Source: Candidatus Bathyarchaeia archaeon (GTDB taxonomy: Archaea; Thermoproteota; Bathyarchaeia; Bathyarchaeales; Bathycorpusculaceae). From it: a stretch of 64,000 bases of DNA. Positions within the stretch are counted from its first letter, which is position 1. Every line of letters begins with the position of its first letter. This document shows positions 182 to 11,405 of this stretch, piece after piece. The notes under the pieces were generated by a model that had not been told where the DNA came from, did no database searches, and saw only the letters and a program-made list of their open reading frames with translations. Made by a program: the position numbers and the translations under genes. The stretch lies in assembly GCA_049512935.1 (NCBI GenBank), contig JBEKWR010000007.1:32001-96000 (forward strand). Direction: 5' to 3'.

Positions 182-667
182 GGCTAACTTTCCGACGTGG
201 CGCGATTCGGAGATAGCTAATAGGGCAGATTTTTTCGTAACGTCGCGTTTACTCTATTGCTTTTTTTGATAACTGAACTAACATATCGCACGCTTGGAGC
301 ATTAGCAACTCTTGAGCGGAATTCGATTTGGGCAGGTTCGGAGCACGAAGGCTTATCTCTTTTAGAAAGTGCAAAGAGGCGCATTCGAGGATGACGTTTC
401 TACTTTTTGCTTGAGCCGCCGCTGGATTTGAACTATTTTTGTTTGGTGGACACATATTCTTAATGAGGTCAAAAACGATTTTACCGGTAAAGTGGGGTTC
501 CATCCCCTTCCCGACTCCATTTTTTTCAAATGTTTTAGCCTTTAACTGTAAATAAGCCTTCGATAAATTGACAAAATACTTGGTGGAACGATAAGTAATG
601 CAGAAGAATAGGATACAGATATTAGGCTGAGTCTACAACTTCAATTCCTCTTAACGTGTTGGTTATA

Positions 668-1084
668 ATGGATTGCAGGTTGCAAGTTTTTAAGCGAGAC
701 CAGATAGACAACAACTTAACGAAGACCTATCGCTTTGCAGTTGTCGATTTCAGCAGGTCCAAAAGTTATCCTTCCAACTTCGTTTGCATGCTACCGTTAA
801 AAGTAGATCAAGGAAAAGGAAAAATTGGAAACGTGTTCGGGGAGCTTTTTGGAGATGAAAGCTTAGAGTTAGCCATGAGACTGTTAAGAGAGGCACTTAA
901 GACTGAGAGCGATGTTGATGTTAAGGCGGAAATAGAGCGAAGGCTAAATCTGATTGATCCCAAGCGCATTAACCTTATCAAGTGCAGCGGATGCAAAAAA
1001 ACCTTCCAAGCCCGAAAATTCAGAAAGTACAAGCAAAATTTCTGCCCAGAATGCCTTCAAAAAAAATCAGGGATAAGCCAATAG
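668..1084 (+). CDS. Hypothetical protein with C-terminal Zn ribbon
   Basis: ATG at 668 (MDCRLQVFKR); C-terminal CSGC...CPEC motif. Confidence 0.75.
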   Translation: MDCRLQVFKRDQIDNNLTKTYRFAVVDFSRSKSYPSNFVCMLPLKVDQGKGKIGNVFGELFGDESLELAMRLLREALKTESDVDVKAEIERRLNLIDPKRINLIKCSGCKKTFQARKFRKYKQNFCPECLQKKSGISQ

Positions 1085-1217
1085 GTCTCTATACAGTACG
1101 GAATATGCAACTTGCGTTCAGTCCTGTCTAAGTGTGTCTGCTAAGTTTTTGCTCTGAATAGCTCTGCGTTAAAAATAAGCGGATGGGTTTACGATTCTTT
1201 CTTTTTTGTGGCGTCTA

Positions 1218-1319
1218 CTAGTTTTTCTTGCTGGTTTTCTTTCTGTAGGTGCAATTAAGCCGAACTGATGATTTACATCTACGGCAATTTTTAACTAGAC
1301 CTGCTCTTAACAGGTACAT
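1218..1319 (-). CDS. 33-aa Cys/Arg/Lys-rich microprotein, copy 1 (MYLLRAGLVKNCRRCKSSVRLNCTYRKKTSKKN)
   Basis: GAGGT Shine-Dalgarno upstream. Paralog of 5503..5637 with 24/25 identical residues over codons 4-28 and 12 synonymous differences. Confidence 0.75.
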   Translation of the reverse strand: MYLLRAGLVKNCRRCKSSVRLNCTYRKKTSKKN

Positions 1320-1350
1320 AGCCGTTTACCTCGCTGATTTTTTGGCATTC

Positions 1351-1407
1351 TTGAAAAGAACCAATTATTCGATTAGGCTGAATCCAACAGGATAAGAGAA
1401 ACTCTTC
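1351..1407 (-). promoter_or_regulatory. Conserved 57-nt 5' leader element, copy 1
   Basis: 44/57 ungapped identity to 5424..5480; begins about 24 nt downstream of a TATA-like CTTATTA. Confidence 0.6.
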
Positions 1408-1690
1408 AGGCTACAATACATTCCTCTTACTAATAAGGCTCAAATAATAGTTATTTTCAACGAAAGAGAAAATATTTTGTTTTTTTCAGCAGAAAAAGCT
1501 TAATGCTAAATTTTTTCGTGAGTTTAAGCCATAAAACGGCTTTTTCATGGAAATACCCTAATATAGACCCCAAGACCATTTAATAAGTTAATAGAATTCT
1601 TTAGAGGAAGAGTCGAACCAGACAAACTGCTTTTTCTCCAGACTATTCTGAGTATAGTTGGCTGGGCAGCCAAACTTGGGTATGAGAAAA

Positions 1691-1996
1691 ATGGGTAAAA
1701 GAAAAATTACAAACGAGGGCAACCTTGAAAGTATGGTTTTACCTTCCCCAAACGATGTCTTAGGCGTGGCAGTAAAAATGCTGGGTGCTGAGAGAATCAC
1801 GGTGAAATGCCAAGATGGGAAGGAACGGTTATGCAGGGTCAGAGGTAAACTAAAAAGACGTGTTTGGATAAGGGAAGGAGACATAGTTTTGGTTTCTCCT
1901 TGGGATTTCCAGCGTGAAACTAGAGGAGACATTTTCTGGCGATATAGGAAAAACCAGTCAGATTGGCTCAGAAATCACAATTACCTGACGATGTGA
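1691..1996 (+). CDS. eif1a: Translation initiation factor aIF-1A
   Basis: MGKRK...LGAERITVKCQDGKERLCRVRGKLKRRVWIREGDIVLVSPWDFQ...GDIFWRY is the classic aIF-1A signature. TATA-like TTTAATAA at 1579. Confidence 0.95.
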   Translation: MGKRKITNEGNLESMVLPSPNDVLGVAVKMLGAERITVKCQDGKERLCRVRGKLKRRVWIREGDIVLVSPWDFQRETRGDIFWRYRKNQSDWLRNHNYLTM

Positions 1997-2190
1997 AGGA
2001 GGCAAAGAGAATTATCCTAAAATGTAAAGAATGCGGAAACACATTCTTAAAAACCGGTCTGAGCGATGGCCAATTGGTCAGTTGCCCAGTGTGCGAGGCA
2101 GACTATAAAGTGACAATAAAGGACGGAAAATTGAGCCTAGAAGATTTCATGTATGAAGAAAAAGATCTCGGCGAACTGAGCTGCATTTAA
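1993..2190 (+). CDS. LysW-like Zn-ribbon protein with non-canonical C-terminus
   Basis: GTG overlaps the aIF-1A stop (ATGTGA). CKEC...GQLVSCPVCEADYKV...EEKDLGELSCI resembles LysW/ArgW (EDWGE terminus). Confidence 0.65.
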   Translation: MKEAKRIILKCKECGNTFLKTGLSDGQLVSCPVCEADYKVTIKDGKLSLEDFMYEEKDLGELSCI

Positions 2191-2228
2191 GCGCAATCAT
2201 CAGAAATTGAAGCGAAAGGTGAAATTTA

Positions 2229-2363
2229 ATGCTAGATTATAGAAATGTATTAATGGAAACTTATAAGTGCAGGATATGTCCAGCGCGTTTTCATACTCCT
2301 GAAGACTAAAGAATCCACAGGATGGTCAATCATAAAGGGCACATGCTTGTCATCAAACGTTAA
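2229..2363 (+). pseudogene. Single C2H2 zinc-finger microprotein interrupted by an in-frame TAA
   Basis: AAGGTGA SD. MLDYRNVLMETYKCRICPARFHTPED*RIHRMVNHKGHMLVIKR fits C-x2-C-x3-F-x5-(L)-x2-H-x4-H, with TAA (2307-2309) at the Leu position. Confidence 0.6.
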
Positions 2364-2548
2364 ATACGGTATAGAATTATCTCAGAGTGTACTATTTTTT
2401 GAAAACTTAACGGACAGCTTCTTTTACTTTTTTAATGCGAAGAGTTCATGATGCAATTTGATTGGTGCCATCTGATTCAAGGGTAAAAACACTTTTATGC
2501 TTCATTATTTATTAGAAGTTCTACGGGTTATTTGTTAAGGTTGAAATT

Positions 2549-3553
2549 TTGAAAAATAAATCAGACCAGTATCAAGAAACATTAAGGATTGGTCTCAGGC
2601 TATATCGTGGATTAGTTTTAAACTCGTTCGGAGGAAAAGCGCCATTATTTGCTGGACATAAGTTAACTTATAACTGTAACCTTAAGTGCAAAATGTGCCC
2701 CTTCTGGAAAAGACCCAGCGAAAATTTAAGCACCCGAAAAGAAAAGGAAATTCTAAGGCAAATTTACGATTCAGGTGTCTGCGCTGTCGGGTTTGAAGGT
2801 GGAGAGCCGCTTTTGAGAAAAGACCTGCCTGAAATTCTGGCTTACTCTCGTTCTCTGCCTCTGCATACAAGCCTTATCACCAATGGCACGCTTCTCAAAT
2901 CAAGGATAGATGAAATAGCACCCTACATCAACGGTATCCTTTTTGTTTCATTGGATGGTCTGGAGAAAACTCATGATCTGATAAGAGGTGTGGATGGCTG
3001 TTTCAAAAGAGCGCTTGAGGGTATAACTGCAGCGAAAAGTAAGGTTTCTGTAACAATCAATACGACCATGATGGCGGATAACATCCATGAAGTAGAAGAT
3101 ACGGTGGAATTGGCAAGGGATTTAGGTGTAAAAATAGTGTTGTCTGTAGCTCATGAATACTATAACATTGCTGAGTCTGCACCCAAAGCCGATGAAATCA
3201 AAAAGGTTGCTAAACAGCTTATTGAATTAAAGAGAAAAGGCTATCCTATTATGAATTCAACCGATTATTTCAGAGTGATAGCTAAAGAAAAGAACTGGAA
3301 ATGCAAACCCTGGTCGATCATCAATATTGGTACAGATGGCCGATTGGTTCTGCCTTGTTACGTTCATAATCAGTACGAAACGAGCGTTTCTGTTTTTGAG
3401 CGCACCATTAAAGCGTCAACTTCAAGTTTTGATTGGGAATCAATGTGTGACTGTGTAAAATGCAATCTTCATTGTTACGTGGAGCCTTCTCTTGTGCTTT
3501 CATGGGATTTACGCAGTTGGGCAGACTGGGTTTTCCCAGTAAGAGCGCGATAG
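2549..3553 (+). CDS. Radical SAM protein (PTO1314-like family)
   Basis: CNLKCKMC motif, GGEPLLR, ITNG; C-terminal CKPW...PCY...CVKCNLHCYVEPS cluster. Confidence 0.85.
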   Translation: MKNKSDQYQETLRIGLRLYRGLVLNSFGGKAPLFAGHKLTYNCNLKCKMCPFWKRPSENLSTRKEKEILRQIYDSGVCAVGFEGGEPLLRKDLPEILAYSRSLPLHTSLITNGTLLKSRIDEIAPYINGILFVSLDGLEKTHDLIRGVDGCFKRALEGITAAKSKVSVTINTTMMADNIHEVEDTVELARDLGVKIVLSVAHEYYNIAESAPKADEIKKVAKQLIELKRKGYPIMNSTDYFRVIAKEKNWKCKPWSIINIGTDGRLVLPCYVHNQYETSVSVFERTIKASTSSFDWESMCDCVKCNLHCYVEPSLVLSWDLRSWADWVFPVRAR

Positions 3554-3688
3554 ACTTTTTCAATCAGCTCAAACCAAAGCTTGCCGATAGACAGCGTTTG
3601 CTTCTTCATTTCTTACGAGCGACCTAAATCAAAAAGGCAAGGCAAACTCCTATATGCTTGATGTCAAGCTTTGAACTAGCAGATCAAT

Positions 3689-3871
3689 ATGAACCCTGAG
3701 AATTATAAATCCAAAAGAAAAGGACAGCCTAAACGAAATAACTCGTCTGGTCGAGCCCAAAGGCGTGCAAACACTAAAGAATGGACCACACACACCACTC
3801 CGAAACTGCGTGAAATTTACTCCACCAAAACTGAATGGGCAACCAAGAAACTCCCCAAATTAAAAGTCTAG
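3689..3871 (+). CDS. Small basic hypothetical protein (60 aa)
   Basis: ATG ORF, K/R-rich, TATA-like TATAT about 35 nt upstream. No family recognised. Confidence 0.4.
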   Translation: MNPENYKSKRKGQPKRNNSSGRAQRRANTKEWTTHTTPKLREIYSTKTEWATKKLPKLKV

Positions 3872-4053
3872 ACGCCTCAATAAAACTTCACAGTTTCTTC
3901 ACGTCTTTCACCCGTCAATTCAGGTATGTTGTTTTCCAGCATTCTGCTTTGCCACCCGGTCTGCCTCTTAGCCTGCAAGGGAATGAACCTTCAGAATAGA
4001 CAATTCAAAAGGGGCAGCGTAAGCGTAAAACTTTTTTTAACTGTGAGGGACGT

Positions 4054-4674
4054 TTATGCTGCGAGCGGGCTTTGCACCACGTTGACTATCGCGGTTTTCC
4101 CCAGACGCAACTGTCTTTCACCTTTAAATGTAGAAACTGAAGCGCCCTTAATCTGCACAGTATCACCCACTGTGAGGAGATCTGCTTGTTCATTCCAAAG
4201 GCAAAGCTTAATTTTTCCTGTCTTATCCGCTATCCAAGCGTTGGTCACTCTCGCGCTGTTTCCATACCGTGTTTGGACGACTGAGGGCTTTGCCGTTTCA
4301 AGAACTTTAGCTTCCAGGTTAACTTTTTTCATTCCATGTCGGAGGTCTTGAACCATCATGGATAATTTGGGTGCAACTTGTCTATTCATTTGTTTTCGTA
4401 TTTCGTCCGTGTACACCCAGTTTTCGAAGCTAATGTTTTTTCTCAGAAGTTCTTCTTCTACTCGAAACTGCACAATTACTTTGGTCTCTTTTGTAATTAG
4501 AAAAATGGCTTCGTCTTTTAGGCTACCCCGGTATTCAACTGTTAGATTTTGACAAGTCGTTTTTCCTTTTTCTCTTGCTACAAGCATGGCTTGATGGAGT
4601 TCTGCAGGATAAATCCCTTGCTTTATGGAAAGAAAGGCAAGTTGATCCATTATCGTTGATTTTTTTCGGTTCAA
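4054..4674 (-). CDS. OB-fold single-stranded nucleic-acid-binding protein (SSB/RPA-like) with N-terminal extension
   Basis: C-terminal half DLRHGMKKVNLEAKVLE...IADKTGKIKLCLWNEQA...GDTVQIKGASVSTFKGERQLRLG is a crenarchaeal SSB-type OB fold. Confidence 0.85.
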   Translation of the reverse strand: MNRKKSTIMDQLAFLSIKQGIYPAELHQAMLVAREKGKTTCQNLTVEYRGSLKDEAIFLITKETKVIVQFRVEEELLRKNISFENWVYTDEIRKQMNRQVAPKLSMMVQDLRHGMKKVNLEAKVLETAKPSVVQTRYGNSARVTNAWIADKTGKIKLCLWNEQADLLTVGDTVQIKGASVSTFKGERQLRLGKTAIVNVVQSPLAA

Positions 4675-5069
4675 TTTTTCCCCTCAATTTGCTAGAAAAT
4701 CTCTTGGAAAAGAGGTTTTTCCATGCCGCAAGTCTCCTCTTTCTTGAAAAATCCCCGCAACCATGGTTAATGCACAATCGAGTATATAGGCTAGTCACCG
4801 AGGAAATGGCGTTTCCCCGAAGTTTCTTTTTTCAGAACCCCATATGGAGAGTGTCGCCTTTTTTACTCCGCACCCGGGGGCGTGCTGGAAAAACATCGAA
4901 TTACAACATTGCGGAAAGAAAAATCGTGTTGTTTTCCCGTTTTTTTCTCCCATAAGGCTTTAAGTGCGCCCTTACTAATATAATGACAACCAAGTTTTGA
5001 ACCACTTGTCCAAATATTTTTGGCTGAAGGGTGAGCGATAAATTTGGATGGGTGTGGGCGCCTTTGAAA

Positions 5070-5315
5070 ATGTTTGAGGCTATGGTCTTTAAAAGAGAAA
5101 TTGGAACAACTTGTGGTTTAGACGTAAAGATGCTTGATACCATGAATGACGGGATTATTTTAAGCATTGACGAAAATTTAGTCAACAGCAACGATCTTTC
5201 GTTTATAAAAAATTTTGTCGATCAAAAAAAACTAAGTCTTTTACTAGACAGCGAGCGTTATTTCATTTCGACAAATGCCCTCAAGCCATCCAGCCTATCT
5301 ATGTGGGATAACTAG
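5070..5315 (+). CDS. Hypothetical protein
   Basis: Open frame 5031..5315, ATG at 5070, protein-like composition, TTTAAG box at about 4959. Confidence 0.6.
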   Translation: MFEAMVFKREIGTTCGLDVKMLDTMNDGIILSIDENLVNSNDLSFIKNFVDQKKLSLLLDSERYFISTNALKPSSLSMWDN

Positions 5316-5423
5316 TAACCATTGAACACGATTTTTCAAAAAGGCGATAAATAGAAGTTTATTCTTTAAAATCGTCTTTTCTTATCCATGCGTTTATAAG
5401 TGCGCAAGCTCACTCCGTAAGTC

Positions 5424-5480
5424 GAAGAGTTTCTTTTATCCTTCTGGGATAATCCTGTTTGAGTAACTGATTCTTTTCAA
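5424..5480 (+). promoter_or_regulatory. Conserved 57-nt 5' leader element, copy 2
   Basis: Starts about 24 nt after TTTATAAG (5393-5400). Internal TTATCC/GGATAA hairpin; 77% identical to copy 1. Confidence 0.6.
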
Positions 5481-5502
5481 AAAAAGAGAGAGGTAAATAG
5501 CT

Positions 5503-5637
5503 TTGTGTATGTTAAGAGCAGGTCTAGTTAAAAACTGTCGAAGATGCAAGTCTTCTGTACGGCTAAACTGTGTATATAGAAAGAAAGTTAAAGCAAAAAC
5601 ATTTTCAGATAACAAGAAAAAAGGCGAAAAAGCTTAG
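5503..5637 (+). CDS. 44-aa Cys/Lys-rich microprotein, copy 2 (MCMLRAGLVKNCRRCKSSVRLNCVYRKKVKAKTFSDNKKKGEKA)
   Basis: GAGAGGT SD, TTG start, four Cys. Paralog of 1218..1319 with synonymous divergence. Confidence 0.75.
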   Translation: MCMLRAGLVKNCRRCKSSVRLNCVYRKKVKAKTFSDNKKKGEKA

Positions 5638-5704
5638 CCTTAGTAAGCGGTGCCAAAGCTTATGCTTCTCATGTCCATAAAATTAGACGAATGAGGTGAA
5701 AAAT

Positions 5705-5893
5705 GTGCAAAGAACACTTCACGAAGCAAAATGTACAGTGTGCAATCAAACCGCAATGGTGCCGTTCGAGCCTACTCCAGGCAAGCCAGTTTACTGCAAA
5801 GCATGCTTTGCTAAACGCGCAACCACGCAGCCTGCAAGAACAAGTACAAGCTATAATTTTGAGCCAAAGCAGGCTTGGGCAAGGCGAAGATAG
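5705..5893 (+). CDS. CxxC-x17-CxxC domain Zn-ribbon protein
   Basis: CTVC-NQTAMVPFEPTPGKPVY-CKAC pattern; GAGGTGA SD before GTG 5705. Confidence 0.85.
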   Translation: MQRTLHEAKCTVCNQTAMVPFEPTPGKPVYCKACFAKRATTQPARTSTSYNFEPKQAWARRR

Positions 5894-5942
5894 TCGCAAA
5901 ACAGTCATTCCCCATTTTACGTTACAATGCGGAATTGAGAGA

Positions 5943-6185
5943 ATGAGGTTAATTAAAGGCTGGAGAAGGATGAGCAATCAAGGCGGTTGTGTTAACGAAA
6001 ATACAGGGCAAACTTTGATTGTTTTAAAGAAAGAATTCAGCGAAAACTATGAGGTACTCCTATTCGCTGGACAGCAAACAGATGCAAAAGAGGGCAAAAA
6101 AATTTCCCCTGCCTTCAGCACTAAGGCTAAGGCTGAAGCCTTCGCAATAGACTGGATGGAAAAGCATCCAAACAGTACTATTTAA
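5943..6185 (+). CDS. Hypothetical protein (80 aa)
   Basis: ATG 5943, MRLIKGWRR...AEAFAIDWMEKHP; follows the CxxC-x17-CxxC gene; T-rich tract after the stop. Confidence 0.6.
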   Translation: MRLIKGWRRMSNQGGCVNENTGQTLIVLKKEFSENYEVLLFAGQQTDAKEGKKISPAFSTKAKAEAFAIDWMEKHPNSTI

Positions 6186-6230: not shown

Positions 6231-7028
6231 TTACCGGCGTTGTTTCTCTCTCTTAAAAGAGCCTTGCCCGCCTGCTTTAGTAATGTTATCGATTACGGCT
6301 TGGCTTACTTCGTCAAGGAGGTCTTCAGCACTTTTCCAGTTGTCCGCTGAAACGTCCACGCTATACCTAGGCGCTGCGATTACAGCAAATTCAATTTTGG
6401 AGCTTCGGCTTTTTTGCGCTTTTTTGGCGTCTGCAAACGCTTGTTGGATACATTTTACGCCGTTCGGTTTCATGCAGCGAATTTCAAGAACTCCCTTGAC
6501 GTTGACCATTTTTATGTGAATGCGTTCTTCTGCAATTTTGGCGAAGGCTTTGGCCATGTCTTCAGGTATGCCCAATTTGGTTAGTGCTTCTGGACCTTCC
6601 TTTAAGGCTGTTTCAAAACTCTCGTACAAGCCATCCGCTTCTTCAATTATAGGACCTGCTTTCTCGTACACGGTCTCTATGGGTAAGCCTACTTGATCTG
6701 CCACTGCCCGCAGGAGAACTTCTCCTTTGCGGTCCTTTTTCCAAGCTTTGACTTTTTCGATTCTTTCGCGTTTTGTAACACGTCTTAAGGATAAATCGAT
6801 ATGTCCTTTTTCTATGTCTACTCGGAGAACCTTAAGGACTATTTTTTGTTTTTCCCTTATGAAATCATGAAGGTTTCTTACTCGGGCGCTTGAGATTTCG
6901 GAGATGTGAAGAAACCCTCGTTTGTTGTATTCGTCCAGGTTAGCGTAGGCCCCGTAATCCATGACGCTCTCTATGGTGGCCATTACTAGGTCGCCTGGTT
7001 CTGGCCATTCAGGTTTATGTTCAGACAT
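6231..7028 (-). CDS. eif2a: Translation initiation factor aIF-2 alpha subunit
   Basis: S1 domain PEPGDLV...YGAYANLDEY...GFLHISEIS...KGHIDLSLRRV; C-terminal AAPRY motif. Confidence 0.95.
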   Translation of the reverse strand: MSEHKPEWPEPGDLVMATIESVMDYGAYANLDEYNKRGFLHISEISSARVRNLHDFIREKQKIVLKVLRVDIEKGHIDLSLRRVTKRERIEKVKAWKKDRKGEVLLRAVADQVGLPIETVYEKAGPIIEEADGLYESFETALKEGPEALTKLGIPEDMAKAFAKIAEERIHIKMVNVKGVLEIRCMKPNGVKCIQQAFADAKKAQKSRSSKIEFAVIAAPRYSVDVSADNWKSAEDLLDEVSQAVIDNITKAGGQGSFKREKQRR

Positions 7029-9551: not shown

Positions 9552-11405
9552 CTATTCGGTCATGTAGGTTATGTCGTCCCACGGGTGCCTGTAGAGTCCC
9601 TGCTTGAGACGTTTCTGGTCTAGGAAGTGCGCGGTCATGCCGATTGTTCTGCCCACCACGAAGAGACCGTTAAGGGCCCCCATCTGAACGTACTCGTCGG
9701 CTTCCTGCTTTGGCATCTCGTTCCGGAGCATGTCAACGAAGCAGATTCCGATGCAGCCGTCAACGTTCAGGATGAGGTTGTCTTTCTTCGCAGTCGTGAG
9801 TTTCTCAACCTCAAGGGCGTAGTCAAGAAGCGGCGTGGATTTGAAGTGCTTCTTAGCGTAATCTTTCATGATGGCCACCCGCATGTCAGGGTTGTTAATG
9901 TTCTTTATCAGGTGCCCGATGCCCTGGATGTTTTCGCCCTTCCTCTTCATCTCCTCAACGAACTGGGCGGGGCTTAATCCCCTGTCGTAGGCGTCGGAGA
10001 AACTTTGAGCTGCACCGTCGATGGCGCCTCCGAACCTTGGGCCGATGGTCAGCAAGCCGCTTGCGACTGAGGACATCAGGTCCTTGCCTGCCCTCGCCGC
10101 GACTATGGCGTTGTGAGTGCCCGAAACGGCGGGACCGTGGTCAGCCGTAACCATGATTGCCATCTCGATGAACTTGGTCGCGTACGCTGGAAGCTGGCGC
10201 TTGAACCAAAGGATGCTCAGCACTCCGCCGATTCCTATGTCCTGTTTGAAGACTTCGGATATGGGCATTTTGCCGTAAAGCAGCTCTTCACCGCGGTCGT
10301 CGGATATGGTACAGATGAAGTTGGAGGGTTTTCTGATCAAGCCTTCCTTCAACGCCTTAGCGTAGTCCATGGGAATTCGGGGCACCGGCGGCTCCGGCTT
10401 AGGTTTGATGACGCCTTTTCGAACCAGAGTCTCGTACGTTTCCCTTATTTTCTGGTCATAATCATCGTATGAGTTGGGAACTATCGCGCCAGCCTTCTTA
10501 AGCGCAGCATTCTTCGCGTCAGCGGTTTCCACGTCGCAACCCGCTTTGGCGCCCGCGTGACCGAACTGAACCTCGGTTTTGAAGACCTTCGTGCAGGTTC
10601 CCGTAACCCAAATCACCAGCGGCTTCGTTATCTTCCCGCTTTTAAGCGCCTCGGCGATCTCGTACTCGCTGCTGCCACCAACTTCTCCCAAGCAAACCAA
10701 CATCTTGATTTCGGGGATGCCTTCGAACCTGAGAAGGTGATCCAGCAGGGTTGAGCCTGGGTAAGTGTCTCCGCCGATGGCGATGCCCTCGTACAAGCCG
10801 TCCGTGTTTCGGGAGATGATGTTGTACGCCTCGTTGCTTAAGCCGCCCGATTTAGACACGAAACCCACGGAACCTGGTCTGTGAAGTTTGGACTCAACGA
10901 TGTTTTCAATCGTGCCTCCAGCGTTGCCGATTTTGAAGCAGCCGGCTTTTACTCCTCCTACGGTTGCGGGACCAATTATGACTTTTCCCAAAGCCTTAGC
11001 CTTGGCTGTAAGCAGCTTCATCCGCCGCTCAGGAACTCCTTCGGCGATTATCACGAATGTGCGTATCTGCGGTATGTTTAGTGCCTCTTCGGTTGACGGT
11101 GCAGCGGACCTTAATGACGCAAAGTTTATCATCACGTCAACGTTTGGGTGCATCTGCGCAGCCTTTTCGGTGGTTTTGTAAACGGGTATTAGGATCTCGC
11201 GTTTGCCGAAAAAGAACTTCCCGAAGCTGTCCGAGCCTGTAGGGTTGATTATTGCAGCGACCGACGGCGTCGTGCGTCCAGAAGCATAGTCAAAGTCAAG
11301 CATCCTCTGTGTTGCGGCGACCTGGTTGTTGTAAATGAATGATTGAGTGTTCTTGTCGAAGAGCTCGTTCTTGTTGGTTTTCTTGGCTTGTTCGGTCTTT
11401 GACAT
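9552..11405 (-). CDS. aclA: ATP-citrate lyase large subunit
   Basis: [26 protein letters not shown], phospho-His QFGHAGA, citryl-CoA lyase domain ADHGPAVSG...IGPRFGGA...[13 protein letters not shown]. Confidence 0.95.

Follow-up and report, generated by a model that had tools for sequence, protein, structure and literature searches.

What are two very short, cysteine-rich open reading frames (ORFs) which lie on opposite strands of one archaeal contig and encode almost the same peptide? The question was raised by a stretch of 64,000 nucleotides from a Candidatus Bathyarchaeia archaeon (assembly GCA_049512935.1, contig JBEKWR010000007.1, positions 32,001 to 96,000 of the forward strand), the whole of which is referred to here as the window. 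Bathyarchaeia are abundant, uncultured archaea of sediment and peat. To our knowledge there is essentially no description of their small proteome, and we know of very few regulatory RNA motifs in archaea. An earlier note, made from the letters of the window alone, proposed that the two ORFs (copy 1 and copy 2, Table 1) were diverged copies of an unannotated microprotein gene under purifying selection. Comparison with related genomes places both of them in a genuine protein-coding gene family which is restricted to Bathyarchaeia and is under purifying selection. The reading we prefer, to which we give a probability of roughly 0.55, is that the product is a basic, probably zinc-binding, nucleic-acid-binding miniprotein, expressed under an RNA element of the 5' untranslated region (5'-UTR) that is shared with other genes.

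The two ORFs were found at the positions and on the strands that had been given for them. Over codons 4-28 the peptides share 24 of 25 residues and the DNA differs by 12 synonymous third-position changes together with the three bases of codon 24 (V/T); 13 of the 15 differing bases are at codon position 3 (binomial P = 3e-5). Within the core, codons 4-23, there are 11 synonymous and no non-synonymous differences. When the comparison is made over codons 2-28 the proportion of synonymous differences (pS) is 0.74, ie saturated, and the non-synonymous divergence (dN) is 0.067, with a ratio of about 0.02. The motif GAGGTAAA is present in both copies, 8 nucleotides (nt) ahead of the start codon, and copy 1 has, as was claimed, a tyrosine at position 2 in place of the Cys2 of copy 2. 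The cysteines of copy 2 are Cys2, Cys12, Cys15 and Cys23, and its charged residues, counted from the sequence, are 15 Lys/Arg against 2 Asp/Glu. Codons 4-10 are indeed identical in DNA between the copies, which had been taken as a hint of an extra constraint on the RNA. That constraint was not borne out, because orthologues vary synonymously over the same codons (TTA/CTA/TTG, GCA/GCG, GGT/GGA, GTT/GTA and AAA/AAG are all used). The actual constraint at the RNA level lies upstream, in the 5' leader. The similarity of the copies runs on for about 85 nt upstream of both ORFs; this similarity, a third copy of the leader elsewhere in the genome and a frameshift in copy 1 are all additional to what the earlier note had described.

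Homologues with a conserved open frame were sought in relatives and were found. A six-frame search with copy 2 as the query covered 60 relatives, 36 of which were other genomes of the same genus, and a full-length match with an open frame (E <= 1.7e-7) was obtained in 24 of those 36; one strong match came from outside the genus, in another family. The frame was open over 40-49 amino acids in all matches from the genus with E < 1e-10, apart from one of 60 amino acids, which has an upstream extension. Among 26 ORFs from related loci the variation was almost restricted to third codon positions, and the median pairwise ratio of non-synonymous to synonymous rates (dN/dS), a check that had been proposed at the outset, was 0.075 over 202 pairs. 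Cys12, Cys15 and Cys23 are kept in all 26, and Cys2 in 25, the sole exception being copy 1 of the window. The start codon is ATG in 15 and TTG in 11 of these ORFs, and the next residue is always cysteine except in copy 1. In an alignment of 45 sequences nine columns, including those of Cys12, Cys15 and Cys23, are invariant; Cys2 is missing from several database entries for which a later start had been called. The homologues therefore confirm a small basic peptide of no described family, encoded by a real coding ORF and carrying four near-invariant cysteines.

The distribution of the family was determined with a profile search. Of 401 genomes sampled from the class 73 gave a match, and these belong to 25 of 131 genera; there are one to three copies per genome, and within the genus the gene was carried by 25 of 39 genomes. 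The versions in other orders have 29-45 codons and keep both the core and the four-cysteine pattern. The family core can be written as MC.LR.G/N.VKNC[RK][RK]C[KQ]SS.R..C..RKK, in a strongly basic peptide of 30-45 residues. About 20 residues of it hardly change at all, although the synonymous sites have reached saturation. A word-indexed search of 5.8 billion proteins gave 22 clusters, all of 42-59 amino acids, and a profile search of 1.84 billion representatives gave just 20 proteins at E <= 0.001. These 20 were short, or lengthened by evidently different starts or frameshifts, several lacked some of the cysteines, and none was a fusion of the peptide to a known domain. The term 'unannotated' holds in so far as none of the 22 clusters has a Pfam domain, but those clusters are already in the public protein collections, some of them as 'hypothetical protein'.

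Could the conservation be that of a noncoding RNA, or could the peptide be a precursor of the ribosomally synthesised and post-translationally modified (RiPP) kind, processed by the radical S-adenosylmethionine (SAM) enzyme encoded nearby? A structured, conserved RNA does precede the ORF, and a radical SAM gene of the PTO1314 family is situated between the copies. The three-base periodicity of substitution and the invariance of the amino acids are, however, beyond what constraint on an RNA alone yields, and the radical SAM gene had no counterpart in 25 related loci, over flanks of about 1.5 kb, or in 16 loci of other orders (the flanks being 1.5-3 kb overall). We regard either version as highly improbable.

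Table 1. Features of the two microprotein loci in the window.
Feature	Position	Strand	Remarks
Microprotein gene, copy 2	5503..5637	+	44 amino acids, TTG start, subtype A, intact
Microprotein gene, copy 1	1218..1319	-	33 amino acids (MYLLRAG...), ATG start, subtype B, truncated by premature TAG
Relic of C-terminal tail, copy 1	1189..1221	-	-1 frame, LVDATKKKES*, 11 codons, matches subtype-B tail
T5 run, copy 1	1171..1175	-	directly past the ancestral stop codon; read from sequence
Leader hairpin, copy 2	5421..5482	+	covariance model R1, 72.3 bits
Leader hairpin, copy 1	1349..1410	-	covariance model R1, 68.7 bits
TATA box (TTTATAA), copy 2 unit	5393..5399	+	31 nt before leader GAAGAG; read from sequence
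TATA-like box (TTATTAG), copy 1 unit	1430..1436	-	29 nt before GAAGAG
Shine-Dalgarno site GAGGT, copy 2	5490..5494	+	8 nt ahead of start codon
Shine-Dalgarno site GAGGT, copy 1	1328..1332	-	8 nt ahead of ATG
65-amino-acid zinc-finger gene	5696..5893	+	PF23477 zf_Tbcl_2 / TIGR04272, E 1e-14, 53-54 bits, above curated cut-off
aIF-1A gene	1658..1996	+	NCBIfam match, E 1e-36; divergent neighbour of copy 1
LysW-like zinc ribbon, 75 amino acids	1963..2190	+	after aIF-1A
Radical SAM gene, PTO1314 family	2549..3553	+	TIGR03961, 331 bits, above cut-off; DUF3463 C-terminal domain
Ssb-like OB-fold gene, 206 amino acids	4054..4674	-	PF21473; between the copies
aIF-2 alpha gene	6231..7028	-	near copy 2

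Two subtypes of the family could be distinguished by their C-terminal tails, subtype A ending in ...F(S/T)DNKKKGEKA and subtype B in ...YVDTIKKKES. In other species, orthologues of copy 2 have 86-87% DNA identity to it. For copy 1 the identity is 88% to a subtype-B orthologue (L025; L, P and G numbers are identifiers used in this study) and only 71% to copy 2. Judged from these identities the two copies are old paralogues, the duplication predating the species of the genus, and that age would explain the saturated synonymous sites between them. The purifying selection claimed for both copies holds for the family as a whole, in either subtype, but not for copy 1 of the window, from which Cys2 and the C-terminal tail have been lost.

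Compared to all five aligned subtype-B orthologues, copy 1 has a single-base gap in its Tyr34 codon, which creates a TAG. The relic of its tail stops at the same position as L025, the only one of the five orthologues that had been fetched that far. On this alignment copy 1 looks to have been disabled recently, by the 1-nt deletion with its stop at codon 34 and by the Cys2-to-Tyr change. The truncation alone need not abolish function, because natural forms of 29-33 amino acids exist in other orders. The T5 run beyond the ancestral stop codon is a possible archaeal oligo-T terminator; copy 2 has no comparable run, and a zinc-finger gene in the same orientation begins 58 nt after it. Damaged copies were also observed elsewhere. 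One in G007 (L032) is frameshifted, others are Cys-less or frameshifted (L048, L097, L136, P0030, P0035, P0039 and P0041), and L146 is also in the list of decayed copies. That decayed copies are so common suggests repeated duplication followed by decay.

The leader which precedes both ORFs is an element of about 55-62 nt, running from GAAGAG to CTTTTC, and is located between the TATA box and the Shine-Dalgarno (SD) site at fixed spacing. A TATA-like box was found 28-34 nt ahead of GAAGAG in 23 of 25 orthologous loci, and in the remaining two the TATA pattern had caught an earlier T-rich site. The spacing of 8 nt from GAGGT to the start codon was kept in 21 of the 25. Given the position of the TATA box, the transcript would begin at, or just before, the hairpin if the usual archaeal distance from TATA box to transcription start applies. 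Across the same number of loci, found by protein alone, the identity in the leader was 0.76. Third codon positions of the ORF reached 0.56, and the 20-nt stretch that separates the leader from the TATA box reached 0.32.

The proposed fold consists of an outer helix (GAAGAG/CUUUUC), followed by UC/GA and UUAU/AUAA, and then a variable inner hairpin, and it is the minimum-free-energy fold for each of the three copies in the genome when these are taken singly. Covariation was tested with 64 sense-strand matches. In the proposed structure 94.6% of the cells pair, against 41-67% when the partners are slid. Two-sided changes were observed in five pairs (shuffled alignments gave 2.8 +/- 0.8, and 8 of 500 reached five), and the covariation score was 0.165 against 0.138 in shuffles, a value that none of the 500 reached with an alignment that had been fitted to the model. 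Three of the four pairs of the inner hairpin had two-sided changes, and one pair was seen as AU, UA, GU, UG and GC. A sense-strand RNA is favoured over a DNA palindrome because a G.U pair is retained in 52 of the 64 sequences and because the antisense strand scores just 23-32 bits at loci where the sense strand scores 69-83. We consider it rather probable that the leader is a functional RNA element.

No known RNA family accounted for the leader: in the whole window there was no Rfam match to it at the gathering score, and only chance-level matches at E <= 10, and neither the tRNA nor the Rfam scan of the window gave a match. Two particular structures were considered and set aside. A C/D-box or k-turn was dropped by eye, the spacing of the boxes being unfit. 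An anti-Shine-Dalgarno switch, with CUUUUC pairing to the purine-rich SD region, appeared only in the fold of the 120-nt 5' end of copy 2 and was not adopted, as it was not present in longer folds of copy 1 or of the third leader copy. One relative has a second, weak leader match (L016 623-683(+), 30.8 bits), and 89 nt beyond it is a Cys-rich ORF of 38 amino acids (772..888(+), C-x2-C-x7-C-x3-C).

Which genes stand behind the leader was determined in two ways. An exact degenerate pattern of the leader was run on a one-genome-per-species collection and gave 77 matches. The peptide ORF came next in 73 of these; three had a different ORF behind the leader (L048 and L097, which are decayed-looking copies, and L068, which is unrelated), and one was cut by the end of the locus. 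Of the 77 contigs, 72 are filed under Bathyarchaeota/Bathyarchaeia, including Candidatus Bathycorpusculum. A Bathyarchaeia-type leader and peptide gene are also carried by two short contigs which had been assigned to 'Methanocella sp.' and 'Cytophagales bacterium' (L085 and L097), probably through mis-binning. Out of 151 genomes sampled from the order, 44 had a match to the covariance model R1, and these came from four families. No leader was found ahead of the peptide gene in other orders, ie the leader is confined to one order of Bathyarchaeia.

Among the 40 R1 loci that were fetched, the next gene was that of the peptide in 19, a member of the CxxC-x17-CxxC family in 14 and a 96-amino-acid type in 4, with 3 unclear. 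All 14 CxxC-x17-CxxC loci are from one family of the order, and the gene is directly behind the leader with no microprotein ORF between (L127, L129-L131, L133-L135, L137, L138, L140-L143 and L145). There are two ways to account for this, an insertion of the peptide gene behind the leader in the window's family or its loss in that other one. In the genome of the window R1 matched just three times, at copy 2, at copy 1 and on another contig before a 96-amino-acid ORF with a CPEC motif. That third match (57 bits; L003 1498-1871, which is contig C31 of G000, about 10838-11211) precedes an ORF with the arrangement CPEC...C..SH and no Pfam family, and the pairing of leader and 96-amino-acid gene recurs in four other genomes (L148, L151, L152 and L155). 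An ORF with a TRAM domain (PF01938, E 1e-5) is directly upstream of the third leader, at L003 1287..1424.

Behind the hairpin there are three gene families, each of which codes for a small protein with four metal-ligand residues, and CxxC-x17-CxxC members of Methanosarcina mazei bind zinc by inductively coupled plasma mass spectrometry (ICP-MS; PMC12704099). It could be argued from this that the leader-bearing genes are metal- or stress-responsive zinc miniproteins, used in buffering or redox sensing, that the hairpin is the sensor, and that the job of the peptide is not to bind nucleic acid. We think this quite unlikely. A single metal site per protein is a poor buffer, so extreme a positive charge is rather what one expects of proteins that bind nucleic acid, and neither a ligand-like pocket nor a known riboswitch architecture was recognised in the hairpin, which matched nothing in Rfam.

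Sequences from RNA libraries gave a hint of expression. Contigs of relatives, with about 85-95% identity, cover 5433-5636 in four peat metatranscriptome runs of one study. One contig of 192 nt is wholly inside the leader and ORF of copy 2, and two others, of 428 and 350 nt, extend from the copy 2 region into the zinc-finger gene. There was no cover at 5300-5419 or at 5900-5971, where the sequence of the relatives would not align. Copy 2 is probably co-transcribed with the zinc-finger gene, which belongs to the CxxC-x17-CxxC family.

A regulatory leader peptide had been one of the options of the earlier note; here it would be an upstream ORF whose translation controls the zinc-finger gene. The arrangement behind copy 2 recurs at 28 of 99 peptide loci, two of the RNA-library contigs span both genes, and in one family of the order the leader is directly before the zinc-finger gene without any peptide ORF. 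The other 71 peptide ORFs, however, have no such co-directional gene downstream, and the subtype-B loci end at a convergent gene. The core of the peptide, invariant over about 25 residues, is kept across orders with different neighbours, which is not the pattern of an attenuation peptide. This option was weakened accordingly to one that we consider very unlikely, and the leader-peptide, RiPP-precursor and noncoding readings are all disfavoured.

The neighbouring genes were inspected for signs of a role. In 20 of 25 loci, nearly all from the same genus, the gene for archaeal translation initiation factor 1A (aIF-1A) is no more than 1.5 kb from that of the peptide, and the LysW-like zinc ribbon is present in 21 of 25 related loci. 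In a locus of another order (L185 3028-3485) the microprotein ORF is directly upstream of aIF-1A and co-directional, 20 nt apart, and the locus also adjoins L35Ae and an Ssb-like gene. From the Pfam table, as we read it, one or more translation, ribosome-biogenesis or RNA genes lie no further than about 2 kb away in 7 of the 16 loci from other orders, among them S17e, L35Ae, Nep1, LSm, RsmB, deoxyhypusine synthase, an HflX-type GTPase, D-aminoacyl-tRNA deacylase and DEAD-box helicases; the zinc-finger gene is near the peptide gene in 2 of the 16. The neighbours give a weak lean towards a role in RNA or translation, from a count that has no baseline. The region around copy 1 is unusually rich in zinc-ribbon miniproteins, and a 142-amino-acid protein with a C-terminal CxxC...CxxC is encoded at 656..1084(+), convergent on copy 1, with homologues in 9 of 25 loci.

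One neighbour points in another direction. The gene between the copies for an Ssb-like protein, with an oligonucleotide/oligosaccharide-binding (OB) fold, has counterparts no more than about 1.5 kb from the peptide gene in 6 of the 25 loci of the genus, and near it in 4 of the 16 from other orders, and its product is a possible functional partner of the microprotein. The peptide might then be a zinc finger associated with DNA or single-stranded DNA, for which a basic Cys4 composition is equally suitable. The Ssb-like gene is missing from 19 of the 25 and 12 of the 16 loci, however, and the other neighbours are often translation or RNA genes of the kinds listed above, so that a DNA-associated zinc finger appears unlikely.

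In the reading that we prefer, one Zn2+ would be bound by the four cysteines, giving the peptide the fold of a knuckle. A single Zn(Cys)4 site is the simplest arrangement for them and is quite probable. The Lys/Arg-rich surface of the knuckle would bind nucleic acid, as its composition suggests; we put the chance of this at about even, and as the target we favour RNA or the translation apparatus slightly over DNA. We would expect the peptide to have an accessory and not a core role, since its presence is patchy, many close relatives are without the gene, there are one to three copies and decay is frequent. Copy 2 would be the working gene and copy 1 a crippled gene of subtype B. Both messenger RNAs (mRNAs) would begin with the hairpin, which would also head the mRNAs of two other small zinc-finger proteins. 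The hairpin most likely acts post-transcriptionally, either as an operator for a common factor or as an element for stability or translation at the 5' end, and the common regulator could perhaps be one of the encoded proteins. As a shared control element, it would make the three genes a small regulon. A bolder form of the proposal, in which the hairpin is a new riboregulator (a ligand or metal switch, or the operator of a dedicated RNA-binding protein) of a regulon of three unrelated zinc miniproteins in one order and the peptide is an independently arisen accessory factor, bL36-like in size and charge, that is bound to the ribosome or to mRNA and works as small zinc-ribbon ribosomal proteins do, is improbable in our judgement.

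Several observations weigh against the preferred reading. Eight of the 36 other genomes of the genus gave no match in the six-frame search and four more gave only weak ones, and some of the genomes of the genus without the gene are 96-100% complete, which argues against an essential role. A model made by AlphaFold2 from the 45-sequence alignment was unusable, with a predicted local distance difference test (pLDDT) score of 53 and a predicted template modelling (pTM) score of 0.19. The deletion in copy 1 could be an assembly error. The association with aIF-1A may be merely inherited, because the loci are nearly all from one genus, and aIF-1A was adjacent in just one of the 16 loci of other orders. 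As for the leader, the 12 outer pairs are 94-100% paired and yet almost invariant, which makes them uninformative either way. The first alignment held 84 unique sequences, 73 of which had been chosen by a pattern that fixes the outer helices, and the second (A7) had been made by fitting to the model. The folds of single leader sequences are no more stable than those of shuffles (z -0.2 to -1.3). The RNA-library contigs may include DNA, and come from one study and from relatives, not from the source organism.

A microprotein family that extends across the class and has an unusually rigid core is now defined, and a candidate cis-regulatory RNA ties it to two other families of zinc miniproteins. 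One of these, the CxxC-x17-CxxC family, binds zinc and is abundant in methanogens, and no function is known for it. A shared operator, if it is true, would be an experimental handle on the role of widespread zinc-finger miniproteins.

Is the peptide, or its leader, a form of something already described? No Pfam or NCBIfam family matched the peptide above cut-off, and a match to SduA_N (Pfam, E 0.016) was below the cut-off and was dismissed. A profile search of the PDB returned only uS12m, at E 0.35, which is chance level, and the ESM Atlas gave no usable match. No description of the peptide or the leader was found in the literature on CxxC-x17-CxxC proteins, on small proteins and zinc fingers of Bathyarchaeia or on small zinc-finger proteins of Haloferax, supplementary files aside.

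The bacterial ribosomal protein bL36 (PF00444) has fewer than 40 residues and is very basic, with a CxxC in its first half and a further metal ligand about ten residues later. Its likeness to the peptide in size, charge and layout was not supported by the profile searches. PF00444 gave nothing at either peptide locus even at E <= 10 and was absent from the Pfam scan, its four best matches in the genome (E 0.15-3) were all away from these loci, and the PDB search yielded no bL36 chain at E <= 10. Unlike bL36, the peptide has no histidine ligand, and its gene is absent from many genomes, ie it does not have the near-universal, single-copy presence in its lineage that marks a ribosomal protein.

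The CxxC-x17-CxxC proteins (TIGR04272 / PF23477) are the family of the gene downstream of copy 2, and in another family of the order they have the same leader. The microprotein resembles them in being small, basic, of zinc type and of unknown function, but its cysteines are differently spaced and it is half the size, and neither copy was matched by the TIGR04272 / PF23477 profiles. The leader is comparable to cis-regulatory RNAs of 5'-UTRs, such as ribosomal-protein leaders, riboswitches and the leaders of cold-shock mRNAs. Like these it is fixed between the promoter and the SD site, is better conserved than synonymous sites, displays some covariation and is common to functionally similar genes; unlike the known examples it has no Rfam family, is thermodynamically weak and is limited to one order.

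The closest known kind of protein is the archaeal zinc-finger micro-protein, represented by the C(P)XCG proteins of Haloferax volcanii, eg HVO_2753 and HVO_0758. These proteins (PMC11241148 and PMC10716476) and the peptide have in common that they are archaeal, stand alone, have fewer than 70 amino acids and four cysteines predicted to hold one zinc ion, and are mostly missed or unnamed in annotation. The peptide differs in its spacing, C-x9-C-x2-C-x7-C, ie one CxxC and two isolated cysteines. In place of two C(P)XCG motifs it has one CRRC, with neither the P nor the G, and single cysteines at positions 2 and 23. It has no sequence relationship to the C(P)XCG proteins, is far more basic and occurs in Bathyarchaeia only. 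Compared to all of these systems, what is new here is the microprotein family together with its candidate cis-regulatory RNA.

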